From: Candidatus Iainarchaeum sp.
Lineage (GTDB): Archaea > Iainarchaeota > Iainarchaeia > Iainarchaeales > DTGL01
NCBI GenBank assembly: GCA_038886995.1
Contig: JAWALG010000006.1
Location: 1-41,131 of the forward strand
Reading direction: 5' to 3'
Length of the DNA stretch: 41,131 nt
A program made the position numbers and the translations under genes. The number at the start of each line of letters is the position of its first letter. Positions within the stretch are counted from its first letter, which is position 1. The notes below the pieces were generated by a model. That model was given only the letters and a program-made list of their open reading frames with translations, did not search any database and was not told the origin of the DNA. Positions 595 through 41,131 of this stretch are shown here, in pieces.

Positions 595-1011
595 ATGGCA
601 GAATCAAAAGAAAGCAAAGTTTATAGTTGGGTCGAGTACAAACCAGAAGAAATAGAAGAAATGGTTTATAAGCTACACCACGAAGGCAAAAAGAAAAGTG
701 AAATAGGTGCAATTATTAGGGACCAGTACGGTGTGCCTAATATTAAAGAGCTCACAGGCAAAACAATATCTGAAATACTCAAGGAAAAAGGCGCAAAAGA
801 GGAAGTGCCTGAAGATCTAATGAGCTTAATAAAGAAAAGCGTAAAGCTTCTTGAACACATGGAAAAGCACAAAAAGGACTATAAAGCTAAGCGCGGCTAT
901 GAACTCACGACCTCAAAAATAAGGCGCCTCGTAGGTTATTATAAGGAAAAAGGGGCCTTACCAGAAAATTGGGAATATACTCCTGAAAAAGCAAAGCTGC
1001 TGGTGAAGTGA
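595..1011 (+). CDS. rps15: 30S ribosomal protein S15 (uS15, S13e type)
   Basis: W..Y.PEEIE, SEIG.IIRDQYGVP, PEDL..LIKK, D.KAKRG..LT.SKIRRL..YY and LP.NW.Y motifs. Confidence 0.96.
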   Translation: MAESKESKVYSWVEYKPEEIEEMVYKLHHEGKKKSEIGAIIRDQYGVPNIKELTGKTISEILKEKGAKEEVPEDLMSLIKKSVKLLEHMEKHKKDYKAKRGYELTTSKIRRLVGYYKEKGALPENWEYTPEKAKLLVK

Positions 1012-1151
1012 TGGTATACTATAAATGCAAATTGATGATTGATAATTCTCAAGAAGAGCTATCAGGCAATGCTGATTTAGATGAAATCCTACAACTAATC
1101 GATTCGAGAATATCTCAAGCTAATAAGGAGTGCGATTGCTGTGGCAGGTAA
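1011..1151 (+). CDS. Small 46-aa ORF in the usual Pcc1 position (possible reduced Pcc1)
   Basis: ATG overlaps the rps15 stop (TGATG) and has a GGTGA SD upstream. The ORF fills the whole gap and overlaps the rps3ae start: MVYYKCKLMIDNSQEELSGNADLDEILQLIDSRISQANKECDCCGR. Confidence 0.5.
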   Translation: MVYYKCKLMIDNSQEELSGNADLDEILQLIDSRISQANKECDCCGR

Positions 1152-1731
1152 AAAGCAAAGAAGCTCTGCAGACAAATGGAAAAAGAAAAAATGGTACAAA
1201 GTAAAAGCACCAAAGGAATTTAAGGAAATTATCATTGGTGAGACACCAGCTGAAAAAGAGCAACAGCTAATTGGCAGGACAGTTGAGCTGCCTTTTAGCG
1301 AAATAGCAGCACAGAAAAAGCAAATACCTATGTTAGTTAAGCTCAGGATCAAAGCTGTAAGTTCAGGTAGTGCAGAAACCGAGCTTATAGGTTGCAGGTT
1401 TGATAGCGGCTACCTTAGGCGAATTGTAAGAAGGAGGAAAAGTAAAGTAGATACAATAATTTATGCAGATACTTCCGACAGCAAAAAAGTAAAACTAGCA
1501 GCAACAGCAATATGCACTTCAAAAACAAACAGAAAGAAAGAAACCGAGATAAGAAAACTCATGGCTAAAGAAATAACTGATGAGGCAAAAAAGGAAACCT
1601 TCGAAAATTTTATGTTGCAGGTTGTGTCCGGGGCACTTGCACAAAAAATTTTTAATAGCTTGAAGAAAATAGCACCTCTGCAAAGAGCCGAAGTGATAAA
1701 GGCCTATTTAGTAGAAGGGACTAATAAATGA
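1141..1731 (+). CDS. rps3ae: 30S ribosomal protein S3Ae (eS1)
   Basis: DKWKKKKWY.V.AP..F, IGETPA, LIGRTVE, YLRR.VRRRKSKVD, KKIAPL.RAEV.K. GTG start with AAGGAG SD. Confidence 0.96.
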   Translation: MAGKKQRSSADKWKKKKWYKVKAPKEFKEIIIGETPAEKEQQLIGRTVELPFSEIAAQKKQIPMLVKLRIKAVSSGSAETELIGCRFDSGYLRRIVRRRKSKVDTIIYADTSDSKKVKLAATAICTSKTNRKKETEIRKLMAKEITDEAKKETFENFMLQVVSGALAQKIFNSLKKIAPLQRAEVIKAYLVEGTNK

Positions 1732-2441
1732 GCCCGGACCTTGGTGCGCTAATTGTTATTTTATCCATTGCATTTTTTTCTTTTTTTTCATTATACAAAA
1801 AGCTTCTGAGCAGAGATGGTATACTTTTTGCAAATATATTCGGAATATTCGTGTATTTTTTAGGTGGGCTTCAGGCGTTTGTAACATTAATTCTTTTCTT
1901 TTCAATCGCCGAATTTGCAACTTCTTTAGGCCGAAAAAAATTCAAACCGCATGAAAGCAGAGATGTGGGAAACATAATCGGCAATGGCCTGCCTGCGTTG
2001 ATTGCCTTATTTCTCGGTTCTAAAATAGGCTTTTATGGTGGCATAAGTGCTGCACTGTCTGACACAATGTCATCAGAAATAGGTCTTCTCTCCGAAAAAA
2101 AGCCAAGACTAATCACTAACCTTAAGAAGGAAGTTCCTCGAGGTACTGACGGAGGCATAACAATGCTTGGTTTGTTTGCAGGTCTTTCAGGGGCTTTTTT
2201 AATAGGTGTGACCTACCTTTCCTTTAACTTAAACCAATTTGGTCTTAACCTCTTATTTGGCCTTTTAGTAATATTTTTGAGCGGTTTTATTGGTTGCATT
2301 ATTGATTCCCTGCTGGGTGCAGTTTTTGAGATTAAGGGAAAACTAAACAATACTCAAGTTAATTTTTTGAGCTCTTCCAGCAGCGCACTATTAGCCCACT
2401 TATTGTGGTATCTGTTTCTTTTGGCGGGGCTTGTTCAGTAG
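1728..2441 (+). CDS. DUF92/TMEM19 (VTE6-like) integral membrane protein
   Basis: Multi-TM protein with R...N..GNG, A.LSDT.SSEIG, PRLIT, VP.GTDGGIT..G, IDSLLGA and NN..VNF motifs. Confidence 0.9.
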   Translation: MSPDLGALIVILSIAFFSFFSLYKKLLSRDGILFANIFGIFVYFLGGLQAFVTLILFFSIAEFATSLGRKKFKPHESRDVGNIIGNGLPALIALFLGSKIGFYGGISAALSDTMSSEIGLLSEKKPRLITNLKKEVPRGTDGGITMLGLFAGLSGAFLIGVTYLSFNLNQFGLNLLFGLLVIFLSGFIGCIIDSLLGAVFEIKGKLNNTQVNFLSSSSSALLAHLLWYLFLLAGLVQ

Positions 2442-2478
2442 AAGTTAATATAAAGATTATTTTTCTTAATTTTAGCTT

Positions 2479-2979
2479 ATGATTGATCTCATAATATCCA
2501 TTGCCGCATATTTGATTCCAATATACATCGCGAATGCATGTGCTTTGGTTTTTGGTGGCGGTACACCGCTTGACTTTAATAGGAAAATTCATGGCAGGCC
2601 AATATTTGGCAAAGGCAAAACAATAAGGGGCACCTTGGCAGGAATCGTATTTGGGCTAATTGCAGTCTTTTCTATGAGTTACTTTGTGCCCGAATGGTTC
2701 GTTAAAAGTTATCCAACTTTTGGGATATTTCTTGTCCTGGGGGCAGTTTTTGGTGATATTGTCGCTTCTTTCTTCAAGCGACGCCTCGGTTTAGAGAGTG
2801 GCGCACCAATGCTTTTTTTAGATCAGCTTGATTTTGTAGTGGGTAGTTTGCTTGCCACTTTACCTATTAGGGTACCTAACTTTGTGGAAGTAGTTTTGAT
2901 ATTGTGTTTTACATTCCTAATACACAAAGCAACAAACTACTTGGCATACAAATTAAAGCTTAAAAAGGTAGCGTGGTGA
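2479..2979 (+). CDS. carS: CDP-archaeol synthase
   Basis: P.YIANA...FGGG.PLDF, G.GKT.RG, GD...SF.KRRLG, P..LDQLDF, H...N..AY.L.LK..W. Confidence 0.93.
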   Translation: MIDLIISIAAYLIPIYIANACALVFGGGTPLDFNRKIHGRPIFGKGKTIRGTLAGIVFGLIAVFSMSYFVPEWFVKSYPTFGIFLVLGAVFGDIVASFFKRRLGLESGAPMLFLDQLDFVVGSLLATLPIRVPNFVEVVLILCFTFLIHKATNYLAYKLKLKKVAW

Positions 2980-2980
2980 C

Positions 2981-3502
2981 TTGCGAAATAAAAAGAAACT
3001 TGGCTTTGGAATATGCAACGATGAAAGAAAAAAAGAGCTCTACTTTCTTATTAAATTCTTTCTCATATACGGTACGCTCCAGGCAATAATATATTTTGCG
3101 GATGTAAGCTTTATAACCAACTGGATTGCCTCATTCGAAGCTTCACTTTTTCAGCTTGAGAGCCAAGGAAATGCTATTAGGGCCGGTACTGCTGTTTTTG
3201 TAATAAATAACTCCTGTACAGGCCTTGTTTCGATTTCAGTTCTTGCAGCAATTGTTTTTTCATTCAGAAAGCCCTCTTTAAGGGAAAAAATAATTGTTTT
3301 TTTGCCTTGCTCAGCCATTCTTTTCTTGGTGAATCTGGCTAGAGTGTATGCTGTAATTTACGCTGGCGTTCATATAAGCCACAGCTTAGTTGAACCTTTG
3401 CACGTAGGTAGCTGGTTCGTGATGTCTGGCGCAATAGTTCTTTTATGGTATTATGGTACTAAAAAGATTGCAAAAATACGATACTTCGCGGAACTGCTTT
3501 GA
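2981..3502 (+). CDS. Archaeosortase/exosortase-family membrane transpeptidase
   Basis: Multi-TM protein with I..SCTG (Cys), NLAR (Arg) and a downstream His (EPLH), matching the exosortase Cys-Arg-His triad. TTG start is uncertain. Confidence 0.85.
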   Translation: MRNKKKLGFGICNDERKKELYFLIKFFLIYGTLQAIIYFADVSFITNWIASFEASLFQLESQGNAIRAGTAVFVINNSCTGLVSISVLAAIVFSFRKPSLREKIIVFLPCSAILFLVNLARVYAVIYAGVHISHSLVEPLHVGSWFVMSGAIVLLWYYGTKKIAKIRYFAELL

Positions 3503-3557
3503 ATAGATGCAAGATAAGCATGCAAAGTATTTTATTTACTTAAAACTTCTTTTAATT

Positions 3558-4190
3558 ATGCCAAACAAAAAAAGCATTAAGGAAACAGTGCCTTTACTGA
3601 ATCTAGGTTTTTCTGAACTTTTGCGAGATAAGAGGCTTTTCACCCTGCTTTTAATACAACTAGCTCTTTTGGCAGGCACAGCACTAATGATTTACAAAAT
3701 AGTAGAGCCGTCATTCGAACGCATGTCCTTCAGGCTTTCAAGGGATTCTTCCCCATATATTGCGTTGGTGCTTTTCATATGCTCTTTGTTTGCAATAAAC
3801 ACTGCGCTAAAAAAGAAAAAGAGTCGGCTTTACATTGCACAACTTGAAGCTGGCGAAAACCTTAAAAGAAAAATTAAGCAAAAGGTAAGGTCCCCTAGAG
3901 AAAATACCTTCACGATAACCTTGCTGTTGCTAGAATTTATACTTGTTATTGTGCTTGCGGGTGCAATAGATGCCTATCTAACAGTTAAAGACACTGATGC
4001 GGAACTAAGCAACTACCAAGAGGCATTTTTTTTGTTTTTGGCAAAAGTATTTATATTCTCAGCAATACTTTTCTTTGTGATGTGGTTGTACACATATGCT
4101 AGCAGTTTTGACTCGATAAAATTCAAGGGAAGAGATGCAATTAGGCTACTAGCAAATAAAAAGCAAATTATGCAGAAAAAACAAAAATAA
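3558..4190 (+). CDS. Hypothetical membrane protein (about 4 TM segments)
   Basis: Long ORF with four hydrophobic stretches separated by Lys-rich loops. Start is 3558 or 3507. No family recognised. Confidence 0.7.
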   Translation: MPNKKSIKETVPLLNLGFSELLRDKRLFTLLLIQLALLAGTALMIYKIVEPSFERMSFRLSRDSSPYIALVLFICSLFAINTALKKKKSRLYIAQLEAGENLKRKIKQKVRSPRENTFTITLLLLEFILVIVLAGAIDAYLTVKDTDAELSNYQEAFFLFLAKVFIFSAILFFVMWLYTYASSFDSIKFKGRDAIRLLANKKQIMQKKQK

Positions 4191-12239: not shown

Positions 12240-13898
12240 CTACCTATGCACAAATATTGCCATAACTCCTTTCTCATTTATAGCATCTACCTTAACAAAG
12301 CCCAAATTGTCAATATAATATATGTCTCCTTGCTTAAAAGGTATGCTTCCATCCGCAAATTTTTTAACAGTAGTGCCATCTGGCATTGTTATGTATAAAT
12401 CTATTATTGAAAGTACCCATGGCACTATGGGCTCTATTTTTTCATATCCCACGTATTCTGCAAAGGCCTGCATCTCTGTAACCTTCTTTATTTTCACATT
12501 GTATGCGTTCCTAAGCCTAAAAACATCTGTGCCTGCTTCGATTGCACTTTTATCCACCATAAATGGTTGTAAATCAGCATTTAGGTTAATTGTTATGTTT
12601 TCCCCTAATTTTATTGTCTTTTCTGGTGGGTATTCGACTATGAGCTTGAAAGGCCTTTCTATTGTATTAATGCGCGGACTTTTTCCACTGATGAATTCCC
12701 TGTTTATAGCAGTAAGCATATCCCACTCGATAGTGGTGTCATTTGGCTTAGTGCCTATTTCCATTATTATGCGTCTTATAGTTTCTGGTACAAAACCACG
12801 CCTTCTTAGGGCCACTATAGTGCCAAGCCTAGGGTCATCCCAGCCGCTATATATGCCTTGTTCAATCGCTGCCTTTGTTTTTGAGGTTGAGAGAACTACA
12901 CCTTCAAGCATTACTCTACCTGTGTAAATCGTGTGAGGATACTCCCATCCAAAGTAATTGTACAGAAAAACCTGTTTTGTCTCATTTTGCTTGTGCTCCT
13001 GCCCCCTTATGATTAAAGTCACACCCAGCAAGTGGTCATCTATAGCTGAAGCAAAGTTATAGCTCGGCCATACATGCTGGTCATCTTTAACCTTTGGATG
13101 GCTTGGCTTGTCAACAACTTTAGCAATCCACCAGTCCCTAACACTTGGGTCAACATGGCTTAAAATTGTTTTTATTCTCAGTACTGCTTCCCCTTCTTTG
13201 TACTGGTTTTTTATCATTTTATCAAATCTTTTCATATGCTCTTTTGGCGACTTTTCCCTGCAAGGACATGGTAGTTGTTTTTTAACTCTGGCGCGCCATT
13301 CCTCTGGGTTGCATGTGCAAACATATGCCCTGCCGCTTTCTATAAGGTCAACCATATATTTTTTGTATATTTCAAGTCGGTCGCTTGCAAAGTAAACTTC
13401 ATCAATTTTGCAGCCAAGCCATTCAAGGTCTCGCCTAAAAACCTCTTCTGCATTTGGCATCGGTTTCTTTACTTTAGGATCAGTATCATCAAAACGAAGT
13501 ATAAACTTTCCACCATACTTTCTTGCGTAATCATGGCTCAAAATAGCCGCTCTTGCGTTACCTATGTGCATCGGGCCGTTAGGATTTGGTGCAAACCTGG
13601 TTATAACTTTCTGTTTCTTTGCCCAGGGCAAGTCCTCCAGGCCCAAAACCTTCTGCTTTGGCTTTAGCTCATAACCCTCGTTGCTTTCAATTTTTTGGTA
13701 CTCCTCTTTTATCTCATCAAGAGTTAGCCCATTTACTTTAGAAACAACTTCTTTAGCCACTTCTGTAAGCTCTTTTATATCAGAATCAGGAAAAAGTGCT
13801 TTTAGCTTGCCAACAACTGCAACATCACTTGCTTTTCCATCATGCAAGAATGCGTTTTTTATTGCATACTTGTAGGCAGCATTTTCTATACTTTGCAT
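12240..13898 (-). CDS. gltX: Glutamyl-tRNA synthetase (archaeal type)
   Basis: RFAPNPNGP.HIGN, LRFDDTDP, IRG.EH, LSTS, GWDDPRLGT...LRRRG. Confidence 0.96.
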   Translation of the reverse strand: MQSIENAAYKYAIKNAFLHDGKASDVAVVGKLKALFPDSDIKELTEVAKEVVSKVNGLTLDEIKEEYQKIESNEGYELKPKQKVLGLEDLPWAKKQKVITRFAPNPNGPMHIGNARAAILSHDYARKYGGKFILRFDDTDPKVKKPMPNAEEVFRRDLEWLGCKIDEVYFASDRLEIYKKYMVDLIESGRAYVCTCNPEEWRARVKKQLPCPCREKSPKEHMKRFDKMIKNQYKEGEAVLRIKTILSHVDPSVRDWWIAKVVDKPSHPKVKDDQHVWPSYNFASAIDDHLLGVTLIIRGQEHKQNETKQVFLYNYFGWEYPHTIYTGRVMLEGVVLSTSKTKAAIEQGIYSGWDDPRLGTIVALRRRGFVPETIRRIIMEIGTKPNDTTIEWDMLTAINREFISGKSPRINTIERPFKLIVEYPPEKTIKLGENITINLNADLQPFMVDKSAIEAGTDVFRLRNAYNVKIKKVTEMQAFAEYVGYEKIEPIVPWVLSIIDLYITMPDGTTVKKFADGSIPFKQGDIYYIDNLGFVKVDAINEKGVMAIFVHR

Positions 13899-13979: not shown

Positions 13980-14723
13980 TCAGCTCTTTGTTTCAGCCCA
14001 GCTCCTTTCGAAGTGCTGTTTCAACGGCTCTATCAGAGGCGCGTTATTCCAAACCGCGAAGCAGTATTCTTCACCCTCTTTTTTCAAGTCGCCAAGTGCT
14101 ATAATAAGCTTCTTATTATCAACAATGTATGCCTCAAGGCCATGCTGTGCTGACTTTACATCAACCCCATATTTGAGTATGTCCTCAAGCTCCCCCGCCT
14201 TTGGATGTAATATCTTTACTTGCACATTCTTTTCCTTAAGGCCTTTTATCGCTTTTTTGATTGGCATGTGCTTTGCAAGAATCTCAGCGAAACCCAACAA
14301 CGAGCTCTCCGCACTCTGTAACTCAAGGGCAATCATTTTTATGAAGTCGTTCTTGTCTTTAACCCTTAGGATTCTCGTGCCTGACTCTTCTGCAACTTTA
14401 GCCGACTTCAGTGTTTCCTTTGCCTTTTCCGCGCTTTCTATAAGCTCAGAGAAGCGCTTCTTTTTCTCTTCAACAAGTATATTTAGAACTTCTTCGGGCT
14501 CCTTGGCAACATATCTCTTTGGTCTTCCTTGCAGCTTTATCACAAGATTTTTTGCAGCAAGGTCATCAAGTACATCATAAATTCTTGTTTTGGGCACTTC
14601 AGCAACCCTTGAAAGTTCTGGCGCTTTTACCTCTTTCATCCTAGCAAGAGCGCTTAGTGTTTTTGATTCATATTCTGTAAGCCCCAATTCCTGAAATAGC
14701 GCAATGAGATTTTCCTTTTTCAT
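13980..14723 (-). CDS. TrmB-family transcriptional regulator
   Basis: LGLTEYE.K, VP.TRIYDVL..L..K.LV, G.PKRY.A..PEE winged HTH, and a C-terminal effector domain (IVD..K..I). Start ATG 14723. Confidence 0.9.
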   Translation of the reverse strand: MKKENLIALFQELGLTEYESKTLSALARMKEVKAPELSRVAEVPKTRIYDVLDDLAAKNLVIKLQGRPKRYVAKEPEEVLNILVEEKKKRFSELIESAEKAKETLKSAKVAEESGTRILRVKDKNDFIKMIALELQSAESSLLGFAEILAKHMPIKKAIKGLKEKNVQVKILHPKAGELEDILKYGVDVKSAQHGLEAYIVDNKKLIIALGDLKKEGEEYCFAVWNNAPLIEPLKQHFERSWAETKS

Positions 14724-14849
14724 ATAACCACCTTTTGGACGTGGCAACTTGGCAATATATTTAATTTTTTCTATATTATTACATCTTCATAATTTATAAT
14801 TGTTACATATAAACAAAAATCAGATATTTTTGGCTTTTTTGTGAAATAA

Positions 14850-15647
14850 TCACAGAAAAACAATCCCGGCATACCCGACAACGCTAGCATAATCCTTGCT
14901 AAAGCTCGCAGATGTTGTATATTCAATGAGCATTGCTTTTTTCCTTCCAATTCTTCTGCAATATTGAAGTAGTACCGTTATTGGCGATATGCCGCATATG
15001 CTAAGGTTTTTACTCGTTACAAGGTCATAAAATTCTCTTGGACTTATCTTTTTTATGACATCTATTGCTAGAGAATCCCTTTCCTTTGCACTCTTTTCAG
15101 GGATGAAATGAGAAAAGTCACTAGATGCAATAACATTAAAATTGCTTTTCTCTGCGTTTTCAGCAAGAATATTGCCAAACTCAACCAATTTATCAAATTC
15201 CGTGGTTGCTATTGTAATAGGCACAATGCTTATAGCACCGAACCTATGTTGCAAAAAAGGCAATATTACTTCAATTGAATGTTCCGCTATGTGCGCAGAT
15301 TCATCAAACTCAGCCAAACCTTTTTGCTCAATGCTCTTTGAGAGCTTTTTGTCGACTTTTAATGAGCCGAGCGGCGTTACCCAAGAGTCACTCTCGCTCA
15401 ACGCTATGTCACAACCTATGCCTGTGTGGTTTGGACTTAGGATTACAAATCCTTCACTCTTTTTCATTAAAGCAATTGTTTTTGCAGCAGTTTTGCCACT
15501 ATATGCATAACCCGCATGCGGCACAATCGCCTCTGATACCTTATCAGAAGATTCAACACCCTTAAAAAGGCCAGCAATCTTTTCCCGCAGTTGATTTCTA
15601 TCCGCAGGGTAGAATTGCCCGCAAACAGCAGGCATCCTTTTGTCCAT
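14850..15647 (-). CDS. MEMO1-family protein (AmmeMemoRadiSam protein B)
   Basis: R.PAV.G.FYP, PHAGY.YSG, PNHTG, W.TPLG, EHS.EV.LPFLQ, SSDFSH, SICG and VVGY. Confidence 0.94.
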   Translation of the reverse strand: MDKRMPAVCGQFYPADRNQLREKIAGLFKGVESSDKVSEAIVPHAGYAYSGKTAAKTIALMKKSEGFVILSPNHTGIGCDIALSESDSWVTPLGSLKVDKKLSKSIEQKGLAEFDESAHIAEHSIEVILPFLQHRFGAISIVPITIATTEFDKLVEFGNILAENAEKSNFNVIASSDFSHFIPEKSAKERDSLAIDVIKKISPREFYDLVTSKNLSICGISPITVLLQYCRRIGRKKAMLIEYTTSASFSKDYASVVGYAGIVFL

Positions 15648-15683
15648 ATTTAAAATTAGCCCCAAATTTGATTAAATTTTTTT

Positions 15684-37757: not shown

Positions 37758-39578
37758 TTATTTTTTACCTTTTCTTGCTATTGCTAAAACGATAAAAGAG
37801 ACCAGTATTACAATGCCTGGTGTTATTTCAGGAGCGCTACTACTTCTTGCAACTTCCATTTCAACAACATTAAATGATGTTCTCTTTGTGCACTCCGCTT
37901 CAGTGCAATTCTTTAAGCTCGCAATTACTTCATACTCTCCTTTTTCTTGCAATGGGCCATAGCTTGTGTGTGTGCCGCATATAACATTCTGTATTGTTGT
38001 TGCATACTGCCCCCTCTTGACTATAATGTCTGCTGTTTGAGCCCCAGTGCAGTCGACAAATATTGTTGTGCTTTCACCCATGATGACATTTTCAGCCCCA
38101 AGAGCAGTTATACCCCTAAATGAATATACATTTATAGTTTGGCTGGATTCGCTATAAGCGCCATATTCGTCAATTGCTTTTAGCTTTACAGTGTAGGTGC
38201 CAATTTCATTATACCTGTATAAAGCGTTTTTACCTTCTTTCTTTATCCCATTTCCAAGGTCCCATTCGTATGTTGTAAAATGGCCATCTTGTTCTGATTC
38301 TTCAACAGAAAATTCAACCGTTAGAGGGGCTTTTCCTTCACTTGGCTCAACTTTGAAATTGGCTTTTGGTGGATTGTTTTTTACAGTAACGCTTTTTACT
38401 TGCATTGATGACATGACTGTTGAACCAAGCCCAGAATCCTTAACCGTTAGCTTCACATTAAAAATTGCCTCGTCATTTATTGGCTTTTTTGTATATTTGT
38501 GAGTTATTTTTTTTCCAGTAGCAATGCTTCCATCACCGAAGTCCCATTCGTATTTTGAAACAAAGTCACCTAAACCAATATCAGCGTCACTAGAGCAACT
38601 AGCATCAAAGGTGAATTCTGTAATGCCCACAATGCCTTCTTCAGGAGTTATTTCAAAGCAGGCAGTTGGGGGCCAATTACTTGAAACGACATTCAGCATA
38701 ATTTCTGTCGAATCTACAGCCCCGGCTGTGTCAGAAACCGTAAGCTTTACAACATAGGAACCTTCCTTTGTGAAAGATTTAGTTACAGTAGTACCAGTTG
38801 CTGAACCATAGTTACCAAAATCCCATTTGCATATAATATCAGTAGCTTCCGGATCATGACTTTCACTACAATCAAAAATAACGCTTTGACCTACAGATAT
38901 CTCAACATTTCTACCACTTCCAAAAGGAATTGTTTTTATCACTGCTTTAGGGTTACAGTTTCCTATTCCTTCTATTTCAGAACAACCATATGGGCAATCA
39001 AAACTCTCGCATCTTTTATTGTTTATCTTCGAAGTGCATTTGCCAGCGTTGCAATAGCCCTCTACTTTCGTTCCATACCTGACCTTTTGAGTTTTGGCTT
39101 TCCCCTGGGTAACGCACTTCCATTCTCTGCATTCAGTTGGCTTGCTCAAAACATTGCAATCTTCCTTTTCATTTAGCCAGCCATTGCAGCTATCATAAAT
39201 CCAAACATCTGACTTCTCAGTGCAATTATTGCCCTCGCAAACGATTCTGTTATAGCACTTTGGCTCTTGTTCACAAGCGCTAAAAACAAATGGTTCGGCG
39301 CTTATTGTCCCTGCATTACACCTGCAAAATGTCGGCTTATAACATGCAATGCAGTTGTCCTTAGGGGTACAAAGCGCATCGCAAGCACCTTGCTCGACGC
39401 TAATGCAATAGTTTGCAACTTCACATTCACAGAAATCTTTACACAATGCGTTACAGGCAAGTTCTGCCTTTGATTTAGCAGCAATTGCATCTTCAAAGCA
39501 AACTTGCATCTGGGCGGCTAAAGCACTAAATGAAAATAGAAATAAAAGCACGATAATCTTCTTTAAGGATTTCATCAT
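37758..39578 (-). CDS. Surface protein: signal peptide, Cys-rich domain, 3 PKD domains, C-terminal anchor
   Basis: Three WD(F/L)G(N/D) PKD repeats with Y.V.L.V.D strands, 26 Cys in about aa 27-208, and a PEI + TM + RKGKK C-terminus. Confidence 0.9.
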   Translation of the reverse strand: MMKSLKKIIVLLFLFSFSALAAQMQVCFEDAIAAKSKAELACNALCKDFCECEVANYCISVEQGACDALCTPKDNCIACYKPTFCRCNAGTISAEPFVFSACEQEPKCYNRIVCEGNNCTEKSDVWIYDSCNGWLNEKEDCNVLSKPTECREWKCVTQGKAKTQKVRYGTKVEGYCNAGKCTSKINNKRCESFDCPYGCSEIEGIGNCNPKAVIKTIPFGSGRNVEISVGQSVIFDCSESHDPEATDIICKWDFGNYGSATGTTVTKSFTKEGSYVVKLTVSDTAGAVDSTEIMLNVVSSNWPPTACFEITPEEGIVGITEFTFDASCSSDADIGLGDFVSKYEWDFGDGSIATGKKITHKYTKKPINDEAIFNVKLTVKDSGLGSTVMSSMQVKSVTVKNNPPKANFKVEPSEGKAPLTVEFSVEESEQDGHFTTYEWDLGNGIKKEGKNALYRYNEIGTYTVKLKAIDEYGAYSESSQTINVYSFRGITALGAENVIMGESTTIFVDCTGAQTADIIVKRGQYATTIQNVICGTHTSYGPLQEKGEYEVIASLKNCTEAECTKRTSFNVVEMEVARSSSAPEITPGIVILVSFIVLAIARKGKK

Positions 39579-40229: not shown

Positions 40230-41131
40230 TCATCTTTTGCCGGAAGTCCTCACTTCTAATTTCGTTATTAAAAGTGCAACTAGTGAAACTGCAACAACTG
40301 CAAATATATTCATCTCAAAAGTTTCTACTTCGACTTCCTCATAAACATTGAAAGAAGTAGTCTTGCTACATTCTATTCCTTCACAATCCGGTATAACGAC
40401 CTTTGCCATGTATGTACCACTAATCGTAAAGTTATTTCCAAGCAATATTGTAGTCTCGCCATTTAAACTGCAAGGCACACCCCCAATAATGCCCCTTTCA
40501 TTTCCATCAGGGTATACAATAATAAAATCTACGTTTTGGTTCACACCTTCAGTGCAGTATACAGTTGCAATTGTATCTTCCCCGACTTTGGTGTTTCTAA
40601 CAGTTAAATTAGTTGCTGCTTTTACCATGTAAACGAATATGTCAAGATTGTAACTGCTTTCTGCACCAAATTCATCTCTTACAGTAAGTCTTGGGATATA
40701 GCTACCAGCATTATAGTAGGTGTGTATGCTTTCACAGCCGCTTGCTGAAGTGTCATCACCAAAGTTCCACTCACATTCAACATCATGTCCATCATCATCA
40801 TTTGCAGTCGCCTTAAATATTACTGTCAATGGCTTTACTCCTTGCAGGGGTACTGCACTGAATGTTGCTTTCGGTGGACTGTTCTTTACATTTACATCCC
40901 TGCTTGTCTGCGAAACATTTCCGCTATTGTCCCTCACTGTTAGTGTAACTGTAAATGTTTGACTCCCAGCAACGCTGCTGTAATATGTATAAAATACCCT
41001 TTTATGTGTTGCTTCCCCCCCAGCAGTAGTGTTACCATCTCCAAAAGCCCAATTATAATCAACTATTGTGCCATCAGGGTCATATGAAGCAGATGCATTC
41101 ATCTCAAATGAGGTTTTGCCAACAATACCTT
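40230..41131 (-). CDS. PKD-domain surface protein (5'-partial), paralog of 37758-39578
   Basis: Frame is open to the window edge (GIVGKTSFEMNASAS.DPDG). Two PKD repeats (WAFGDG, WNFGD), the shared 4-Cys C-terminal domain and a TM anchor. Confidence 0.9.
   Translation of the reverse strand, partial: GIVGKTSFEMNASASYDPDGTIVDYNWAFGDGNTTAGGEATHKRVFYTYYSSVAGSQTFTVTLTVRDNSGNVSQTSRDVNVKNSPPKATFSAVPLQGVKPLTVIFKATANDDDGHDVECEWNFGDDTSASGCESIHTYYNAGSYIPRLTVRDEFGAESSYNLDIFVYMVKAATNLTVRNTKVGEDTIATVYCTEGVNQNVDFIIVYPDGNERGIIGGVPCSLNGETTILLGNNFTISGTYMAKVVIPDCEGIECSKTTSFNVYEEVEVETFEMNIFAVVAVSLVALLITKLEVRTSGKR

Follow-up and report, generated by a model that had tools for sequence, protein, structure and literature searches.

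Do the three membrane-protein genes packed behind a ribosomal protein gene in an Iainarchaeota genome form a single module for lipid activation and protein anchoring? The window, the whole 41,131-nucleotide (nt) stretch analysed here, is contig C6 of an 866-kb, 38-contig Iainarchaeota (DPANN) genome with a completeness of 88.6% (G000). Its plus strand carries a gene for a DUF92 membrane protein of the VTE6 family (COG1836, arCOG02245; positions 1728–2441; PF01940, E-value 1.5e-46), followed by carS for CDP-archaeol synthase (2479–2979; PF01864, E-value 1.5e-39; NF003114 equivalog) and a gene for a small exosortase/archaeosortase-family protein of 173 amino acids (2981–3502; TIGR04178, PF09721), hereafter the small sortase. 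Open reading frames (ORFs) and sequence confirm these genes and their junctions. The original prediction saw in them a possible single unit that activates an isoprenoid lipid, perhaps scavenged from a host, and uses it to anchor surface proteins. The best explanation of our results is instead a membrane-biogenesis and housekeeping block, conserved across Iainarchaeota, that holds two separate tight units, S15–S3Ae–DUF92 and carS–sortase. We give a probability of about 0.55 to this two-unit explanation with a functional coupling between carS and the sortase.

Conserved pairing of carS with a small sortase

The rps3ae stop and the DUF92 start share a 4-nt ATGA overlap (1728–1731), DUF92 and carS are 37 nt apart (2442–2478), and a single nucleotide (2980) lies between the TGA of carS and the TTG start of the sortase. 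This TTG is the sole in-frame start ahead of the first membrane helix of the sortase; ATGs at about 3013 and 3022 were rejected as starts, being out of frame. The gap between DUF92 and carS contains a TATA-box-like element, TTAATATAAA (2445–2454, plus strand), the centre of which lies about 29 nt upstream of the carS ATG; it is also found in the nearest relative (L056). By consensus resemblance only, this element looks like an archaeal TATA box and is possibly a separate promoter, giving a leaderless carS–sortase message. The gene arrangement is not due to chance, because the same order recurs across the phylum.

Within the phylum we searched this genome and 40 same-order relatives (41 genomes, 29 families), which, being related, are not independent samples. 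Matches to CarS, DUF92 and the sortase family were each found in 39 of the 41 genomes, and a sortase gene stands immediately behind carS in 33 of the 39 CarS-bearing ones; two of the six exceptions (G016 and G026) are contigs that end at carS. Coupling distances and gene order by hidden Markov models (HMMs) were determined for 28 named Iainarchaeota loci, in most of which carS and the sortase overlap or are separated by no more than 10 nt, and BLAST families were defined for 21 fetched loci, one being the window and the other 20 coming from relatives. Metagenomes supplied 80 carS loci. These comprise 22 loci with the Iainarchaeota-type block, 15 of which have a sortase behind carS, and 58 without any block gene by HMMs. 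Pfam searches of 83 ORFs flanking carS at 46 of the metagenome loci (41 of the 58 non-block loci and five of block type) detected no exosortase and no DUF92; 16 short contigs and seven ORFs were left out of this run, five of the ORFs as known DUF92 or SppA and two from locus L200, a near-duplicate of L196. Among the carS loci of other archaea (L162–L222), mtrE lies downstream of carS in methanogen-like contigs, and in another metagenome group carS is flanked by a RadB-like ATPase on one side and a small OST3/OST6-like membrane protein on the other.

A second DPANN phylum, that of genome G160 (NCBI label Micrarchaeia), was represented by 61 genomes, including the unpublished G192. CarS was found in all 61 (60 of 60 without G192), DUF92 in 58 (57 of 60) and the sortase family in 40 (39 of 60). 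Small sortases occur in only five of these genomes (G160, G181, G183, G209 and G219), each of which has two, one of them beside carS (1.2 kb away in G183). A different form of the domain was seen in 31 of the 61, where it lies inside an open frame of about 480–540 amino acids, far from carS, and looks like a large fused or extended type. A maximum-likelihood tree was inferred for 36 small sortases, namely 14 carS-linked proteins and 13 unlinked paralogues from Iainarchaeota, and four linked and five unlinked ones from the second phylum; the groups were labelled by carS linkage, a label that the tree did not use. All 18 carS-linked sortases of both phyla fell on one side of a branch, with the 18 unlinked ones on the other (support 100/98), and the phyla separate from each other within each side. 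Because the linked sortases of both phyla form one side, the tree places the sortase duplication before the split of the two phyla, with only one orthologue having stayed at carS in both. carS and the sortase form a conserved, tightly coupled pair. The claim of one unit therefore holds for this pair, conserved in 33 of 39 relatives and in the second phylum, and fails for DUF92, which lies outside it.

In the reading that we prefer, rps15, rps3ae and DUF92 would make up one unit, in which DUF92 would phosphorylate a polyprenyl lipid. The second unit, carS and the sortase, would be read from one message and is probably translationally coupled. CarS would supply CDP-archaeol, and the sortase, by analogy with ArtA, would cleave the C-terminal anchor tail of secreted proteins and transfer them to an archaeal lipid; with both genes on one message, how much protein is lipidated, or where, would be linked to the synthesis of polar-lipid precursors. 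The coupling would be advantageous, not obligatory: in lineages without carS the sortase persists, on a long branch.

Several findings weigh against a functional link. A sortase is missing behind carS in four informative relatives (G023, G024, G034 and G037) and in six informative block-type metagenome loci, and none lies immediately beside carS in 41 non-Iainarchaeota environmental loci. The sortase is retained in all seven carS-less genomes examined. Neither a phosphatidylserine (PS) decarboxylase (PF02666) nor a clear archaetidylserine synthase was found in the 88.6%-complete genome G000. No cognate sorting signal was established, and no known CTERM model of NCBIfam matches the candidate substrates in the window. 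Moreover, the pair sits in a wider conserved order, Bud32–S15–S3Ae–DUF92–[sppA]–carS–sortase–secD/secF (on the opposite strand)–NOG1 GTPase–UPF0147–PolD small subunit. This block of about 12 genes is syntenic as a whole, including the unrelated Bud32, NOG1 and PolD small subunit, so part of the carS–sortase adjacency may be inherited order. In our genome secDF is on another contig (C14), and SppA was not found among the called ORFs by HMM.

Taken to its end, this argument would make the pair nothing but inherited synteny, a rarely rearranged housekeeping block in which the carS–sortase transcript is shared by accident and has no functional meaning. The order from Bud32 to the PolD small subunit is indeed kept in most loci although its genes are functionally unrelated, the neighbours of DUF92 are wholly different in the second phylum (RtcA, RadA, PAC2, TBP), and in other archaea carS is found beside mtrE, a RadB-like ATPase or an OST3/6-like protein. 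We nevertheless consider synteny alone unlikely, as the pair persists where its flanks have changed (in the window, in L070, and in L091, L097, L108 and L110 of the second phylum), as the sortase found at carS is, in both phyla, the same one of two ancient paralogues, and as the start and stop of the two genes overlap or abut in most genomes.

DUF92 and the source of isoprenoid lipids

DUF92 belongs to a different neighbourhood. The conserved string S15–S3Ae–DUF92 opens with rps15 (S15/S13e; 595–1011, plus strand; PF00312; NF006331, 177.6 bits), the position of which is unchanged in 20 of the 21 fetched loci (BLAST family F1), and continues with rps3ae for ribosomal protein S3Ae (1141–1731, plus strand; PF01015, E-value 2.1e-47), the stop of which is overlapped by DUF92 in many genomes. 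In the 36 genomes that have DUF92 and carS on one contig, the two are direct neighbours in 11 (61–258 nt between matches), about 1–1.5 kb apart in 22 and 3.4–8 kb apart in three. At least one gene thus separates them in 25 of the 36, and where checked this is usually an opposite-strand sppA, for a family-S49 signal-peptide peptidase (detected by Pfam in L036, as BLAST family F6 in 15 of 20 fetched loci and by HMM in 13 of the 28 named loci). sppA also adjoins carS, as a divergent pair, in 18 of 30 second-phylum carS loci (L086–L115), so the pairing of sppA with carS is older than the adjacency of DUF92. The same divergent pair was seen in about half of the Iainarchaeota loci L036–L055 and is more widespread than the DUF92–carS linkage. 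In none of the 58 second-phylum genomes with a DUF92 gene does it come within 5 kb of carS, nor is it near carS in the 41 other environmental carS loci; at 30 second-phylum loci its neighbours are unrelated genes for an RNA cyclase (RtcA), RadA, PAC2, TBP and a prepilin peptidase. The head-to-tail trio of the window is a minority state. Because DUF92 overlaps rps3ae and is usually split from carS, while carS and the sortase abut, we read the stretch as S15–S3Ae–DUF92 followed by carS–sortase, and the placing of DUF92 in the same unit as the other two genes is not upheld.

The DUF92 protein scores 159.3 bits against PF01940 (cut-off 27.5) and stays below the cut-off of the hypothetical-equivalog model TIGR00297 (145.9 vs 205.85 bits). 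Across 19 sequences its residues D112 and D193 do not vary. The AlphaFold model has a predicted local distance difference test (pLDDT) score of 94.4, and among natural structures it matches CarS best (5guf_A; Z 6.8, root-mean-square deviation 3.4 over 119 residues); this score and that against CdsA (4q2e_A; Z 5.5) both lie below the caution line of 8 in VIA-align. An hhalign comparison with CarS was weak (probability 4.8%), yet the Asp motifs align. A Foldseek search of the PDB with this model gave nothing at E ≤ 0.001 (best E 0.28), and sequence-profile searches of the PDB with the DUF92 and sortase alignments gave no matches at E ≤ 1. Makarova and co-workers (PMC5898192) reported for arCOG02245/COG1836 an HHpred similarity to cytidylyltransferases (probability 97.57%) with conserved metal-binding aspartates, a fusion to a Sec59-like dolichol-kinase domain in Methanosarcina, and uppS as the single conserved gene context, from which they predicted a kinase step in isoprenoid synthesis. 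The plant homologue VTE6 is treated as a phytyl-phosphate kinase in the accessible parts of PMC9782597 and PMC3223725. DUF92 is most likely related, at a distance, to CdsA, CarS and dolichol kinase, and is predicted to be a cytidine triphosphate (CTP)-dependent kinase acting on a polyprenyl lipid. With the plant and cyanobacterial VTE6 it shares PF01940, the conserved acidic residues and a predicted isoprenoid-lipid kinase activity (PMC5898192; PMC9782597, as far as the accessible text goes). It differs in lying behind rps3ae, whereas the published archaeal neighbour is uppS, and in its score below the TIGR00297 cut-off.

Such an enzyme could be imagined as the first part of a three-step module, in which DUF92 phosphorylates a scavenged isoprenoid lipid, CarS activates it to a CDP form and the sortase anchors surface proteins to it. 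Here, as in 11 of 36 relatives, the trio does stand head to tail, DUF92 abuts carS at 0–25 nt in, for example, L072, L073, L077, L078 and L081, and DUF92 and CarS appear to belong to one enzyme superfamily, as judged from PMC5898192 and the 5guf match. We regard this module as very unlikely. The product of a VTE6-type enzyme, a prenyl diphosphate, is to our knowledge not a CarS substrate. The frequent separation of DUF92 from carS, usually by the opposite-strand sppA, and the absence of any linkage in the second-phylum genomes and environmental loci also contradict it, as does the published uppS context (PMC5898192). Finally, our genome encodes the synthesis of its own isoprenoids and archaeol precursors.

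The evidence for the latter comes mainly from contig C2 (34454–43565, locus L084), which carries a compact mevalonate cluster of archaeal type. This cluster encodes HMG-CoA reductase (434.5 bits, scoring as the NAD-dependent 'degradative' class), HMG-CoA synthase, a thiolase with its small partner protein, mevalonate kinase, UbiX, a UbiD-family decarboxylase, a two-part aconitase-like dehydratase and isopentenyl-phosphate kinase; the contig also has an IdsA/GGPP-type prenyl synthase. Elsewhere the genome encodes GGGPS (282.6 bits), UppS and a DGGGPS-like UbiA (247.8 bits, below the cut-off of 296). The original prediction had called its unit notable partly because mevalonate and GGPP genes are missing between Memo (14850–15665) and gltX (12240–13898). 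That slot does contain only a TrmB-family regulator (13980–14747), and the genes in question lie elsewhere in the genome. With a complete mevalonate pathway, GGPPS, GGGPS and a DGGGPS-like UbiA encoded, the premise of a host-scavenged lipid cannot be kept for this organism, which, judged from its gene content, is no lipid auxotroph and makes its own lipid.

The situation is different in sister lineages that have no carS. None of the 15 genomes of family f3 has a CarS match, and the carS-less genomes that we examined comprise six of this family (G014, G078, G095, G096, G114 and G120) and one of family f8 (G019). Searches for GGGPS and HMG-CoA reductase in five of these genomes (G014, G078, G096, G120 and G019) found neither, and the only UbiA matches there were two weak ones. 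G014, a single, closed-looking contig of 0.8 Mb with a completeness of 94%, also gave no match to GGPPS or UppS, and it keeps the oligosaccharyltransferase STT3/AglB (90.6 bits). These lineages look like full isoprenoid-lipid auxotrophs that still glycosylate their proteins. A cell that glycosylates its proteins but has no polyprenol synthesis would have to recycle polyprenols of foreign origin, in keeping with a salvage kinase. In all seven genomes DUF92 is directly followed by the small sortase (with only 17.7 bits, below the cut-off, for the match in G019). Neither gene thus depends on a carS in the genome or on home-made isoprenoids. The catalytic-type Cys, Arg and His are retained in the two carS-less sortases that were aligned, and the sortase of G014 falls within the carS-linked clade, on its longest branch (1.96 vs a median of 0.67). 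This suggests a salvage-kinase role for DUF92 in lipid-auxotrophic lineages, and the idea of lipid scavenging, lost for our genome, survives there. A more far-reaching proposal joins both genes, with DUF92 re-phosphorylating a polyprenol, dolichol or archaeol-type lipid of the host in auxotrophic DPANN, and the sortase anchoring surface proteins to a lipid that comes from CarS in self-sufficient cells and from the host in reduced ones, the two together being a minimal surviving lipid kit; we consider it quite unlikely as a whole.

CarS, the small sortase and its candidate substrates

CarS enzymes make CDP-archaeol, the Archaeoglobus enzyme being one of them. The protein of the window scores above both the equivalog cut-off (NF003114; 165.6 vs 148 bits) and that of PF01864 (136.2 vs 22 bits), and its motifs GD...SF.KRR and DQLDF are conserved in 18 sequences. 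The carS product is a CDP-archaeol synthase by prediction, like the CarS of Aeropyrum pernix (5GUF), and only its operon partner is unusual. A role as a VTE5-like prenol kinase partner of DUF92 was rejected, as the protein exceeds the CarS equivalog cut-off and reaches only 37.5 bits against PF01148.

The small sortase scores above the cut-offs of TIGR04178 (43.1 vs 23 bits) and PF09721 (34 vs 25.7 bits), and alignments of 14 and of 17 sequences show no change at its residues C79, R121 and H141. It reaches none of the subfamily cut-offs of ArtD (33.8 vs 125 bits), ArtE (33.6 vs 95), ArtF (18.5 vs 150), XrtX (34.4 vs 170) and heimdallarchaeosortase (15.7 vs 130), and no match to the ArtA, ArtB and ArtC models was listed at E ≤ 0.1. 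Thus, although it is similar in length to ArtD (TIGR04175), ArtE (TIGR04124) and exosortase X (NF046081), the models of which give its best subfamily scores (33.6–34.4 bits), it remains far below their cut-offs of 95–170 bits. The 101 protein clusters found for it bear only the generic name 'exosortase/archaeosortase family protein' and come mostly from Candidatus Diapherotrites. The structure model (pLDDT 91.7) had no Foldseek match in the PDB at E ≤ 0.001. A complex prediction for CarS and the sortase, made with both alignments, scored 0.00, which gives no verdict and is not evidence either way. The best reading of these comparisons is that the protein belongs to an unnamed archaeosortase subfamily of minimal size.

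The closest parallel to the carS–sortase pair is found in the ArtA system. According to the accessible text of PMC7157517, processing by Haloferax ArtA needs PssA and PssD, and artA, pssA and pssD are syntenic in Methanosarcina; a Cys-Arg-His set is essential in ArtA according to the part available of PMC6098224. The small sortase resembles ArtA in its TIGR04178 superfamily, in the conserved Cys, Arg and His, in the linkage of its gene to a polar-lipid gene and in the presumed outcome, the removal of a C-terminal helix and the lipid anchoring of the protein. It differs in being much shorter, in reaching no ArtA–ArtF cut-off and in having no PGF-CTERM substrates, and its linked gene is carS, one step upstream of PssA. 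The sole CDP-alcohol transferase (PF01066) of the genome is nearest to archaetidylinositol-phosphate synthase (96.5 bits vs a cut-off of 180), and no PssD was found. The amine lipid proposed for ArtA may therefore not be made in this organism. Of the original prediction, the carS–sortase link is supported and parallels the artA–pssA–pssD linkage described in PMC7157517; the PssA/PssD route is not supported, in view of the missing PS decarboxylase and the archaetidylinositol-type transferase.

To identify candidate substrates, we filtered the genome for proteins of at least 120 amino acids with one C-terminal helix, no other predicted helix beyond the N-terminal 40 residues and at least two Lys/Arg among the last 12 residues. 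Twenty-one proteins passed, 16 of which have a hydrophobic N-terminus by a crude test. The window holds three of them, two being PKD-domain proteins (PF18911/PF00801) on the minus strand. The first is a surface protein (37758–39578) with a C-terminal helix, preceded by A-P-E and followed by a KGKK tail; the second (40230–41102), the 5' end of which is cut by the window edge, has a C-terminal helix and a basic tail. The candidate substrates of the window show the helix and basic tail, and no match to any known CTERM signal; this part of the original prediction is not supported. NCBIfam searches at E ≤ 1 with five proteins (the three candidate substrates, a giant protein of contig C28 and the 227-amino-acid membrane protein described below) gave no CTERM sorting-domain model. 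A P-E dipeptide occurs within 12 residues ahead of the helix in six of the 21 proteins, where random windows taken from these proteins would give 0.94, and none of 5000 draws reached six; the motif was chosen post hoc, after the tails had been viewed, and is a lead only. The genome also has a second, unlinked sortase paralogue of 216 amino acids, beside the giant protein of 2698 amino acids (contig C28, 3424–12227, locus L085). The latter has an N-terminal helix, and we did not count it as a substrate because its gene call contains no C-terminal helix.

The small sortase-like protein might alternatively have no part in protein sorting, and instead act on lipids or assist CarS or the Sec/SppA machinery as an accessory subunit. 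The lack of a cognate signal, a length well below that of ArtA and the neighbouring sppA and secDF genes, which handle secreted proteins and signal peptides, would agree with this. It is nonetheless highly improbable, since the Cys-Arg-His set that is essential in ArtA (PMC6098224, in its available part) is invariant here, the protein persists without carS, and 21 proteins of the genome have a single C-terminal helix and a basic tail. We therefore retain the assignment as a putative protein-sorting enzyme coupled to carS.

A further membrane protein gene begins 4 nt past the sortase stop (3507–4190, plus strand). Its product of 227 amino acids has multiple helices and no Pfam or NCBIfam match above cut-off. 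In the BLAST and HMM comparisons its family (F15) immediately follows the sortase in the window, L056 and L057 alone, the last two being the nearest kin, and is placed elsewhere in L036, L039, L059, L062 and L063.

Implications for protein anchoring and a possible lipid salvage in DPANN archaea

The accessible portion of the archaeosortase literature in connection with CDP-archaeol or DPANN contains no description of a carS–sortase operon, which is not proof that none exists. For the source and identity of the lipid used by archaeosortases, the artA–pssA–pssD linkage is the only published genetic link that we found. A sortase kept with carS across two DPANN phyla is a second, independent genomic link of protein anchoring to polar-lipid synthesis, and the protein of 173 amino acids provides a small enzyme to test. 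DUF92, in turn, is a concrete candidate for the enzymatic step that may let lipid-auxotrophic DPANN reuse the isoprenoid lipids of their hosts.

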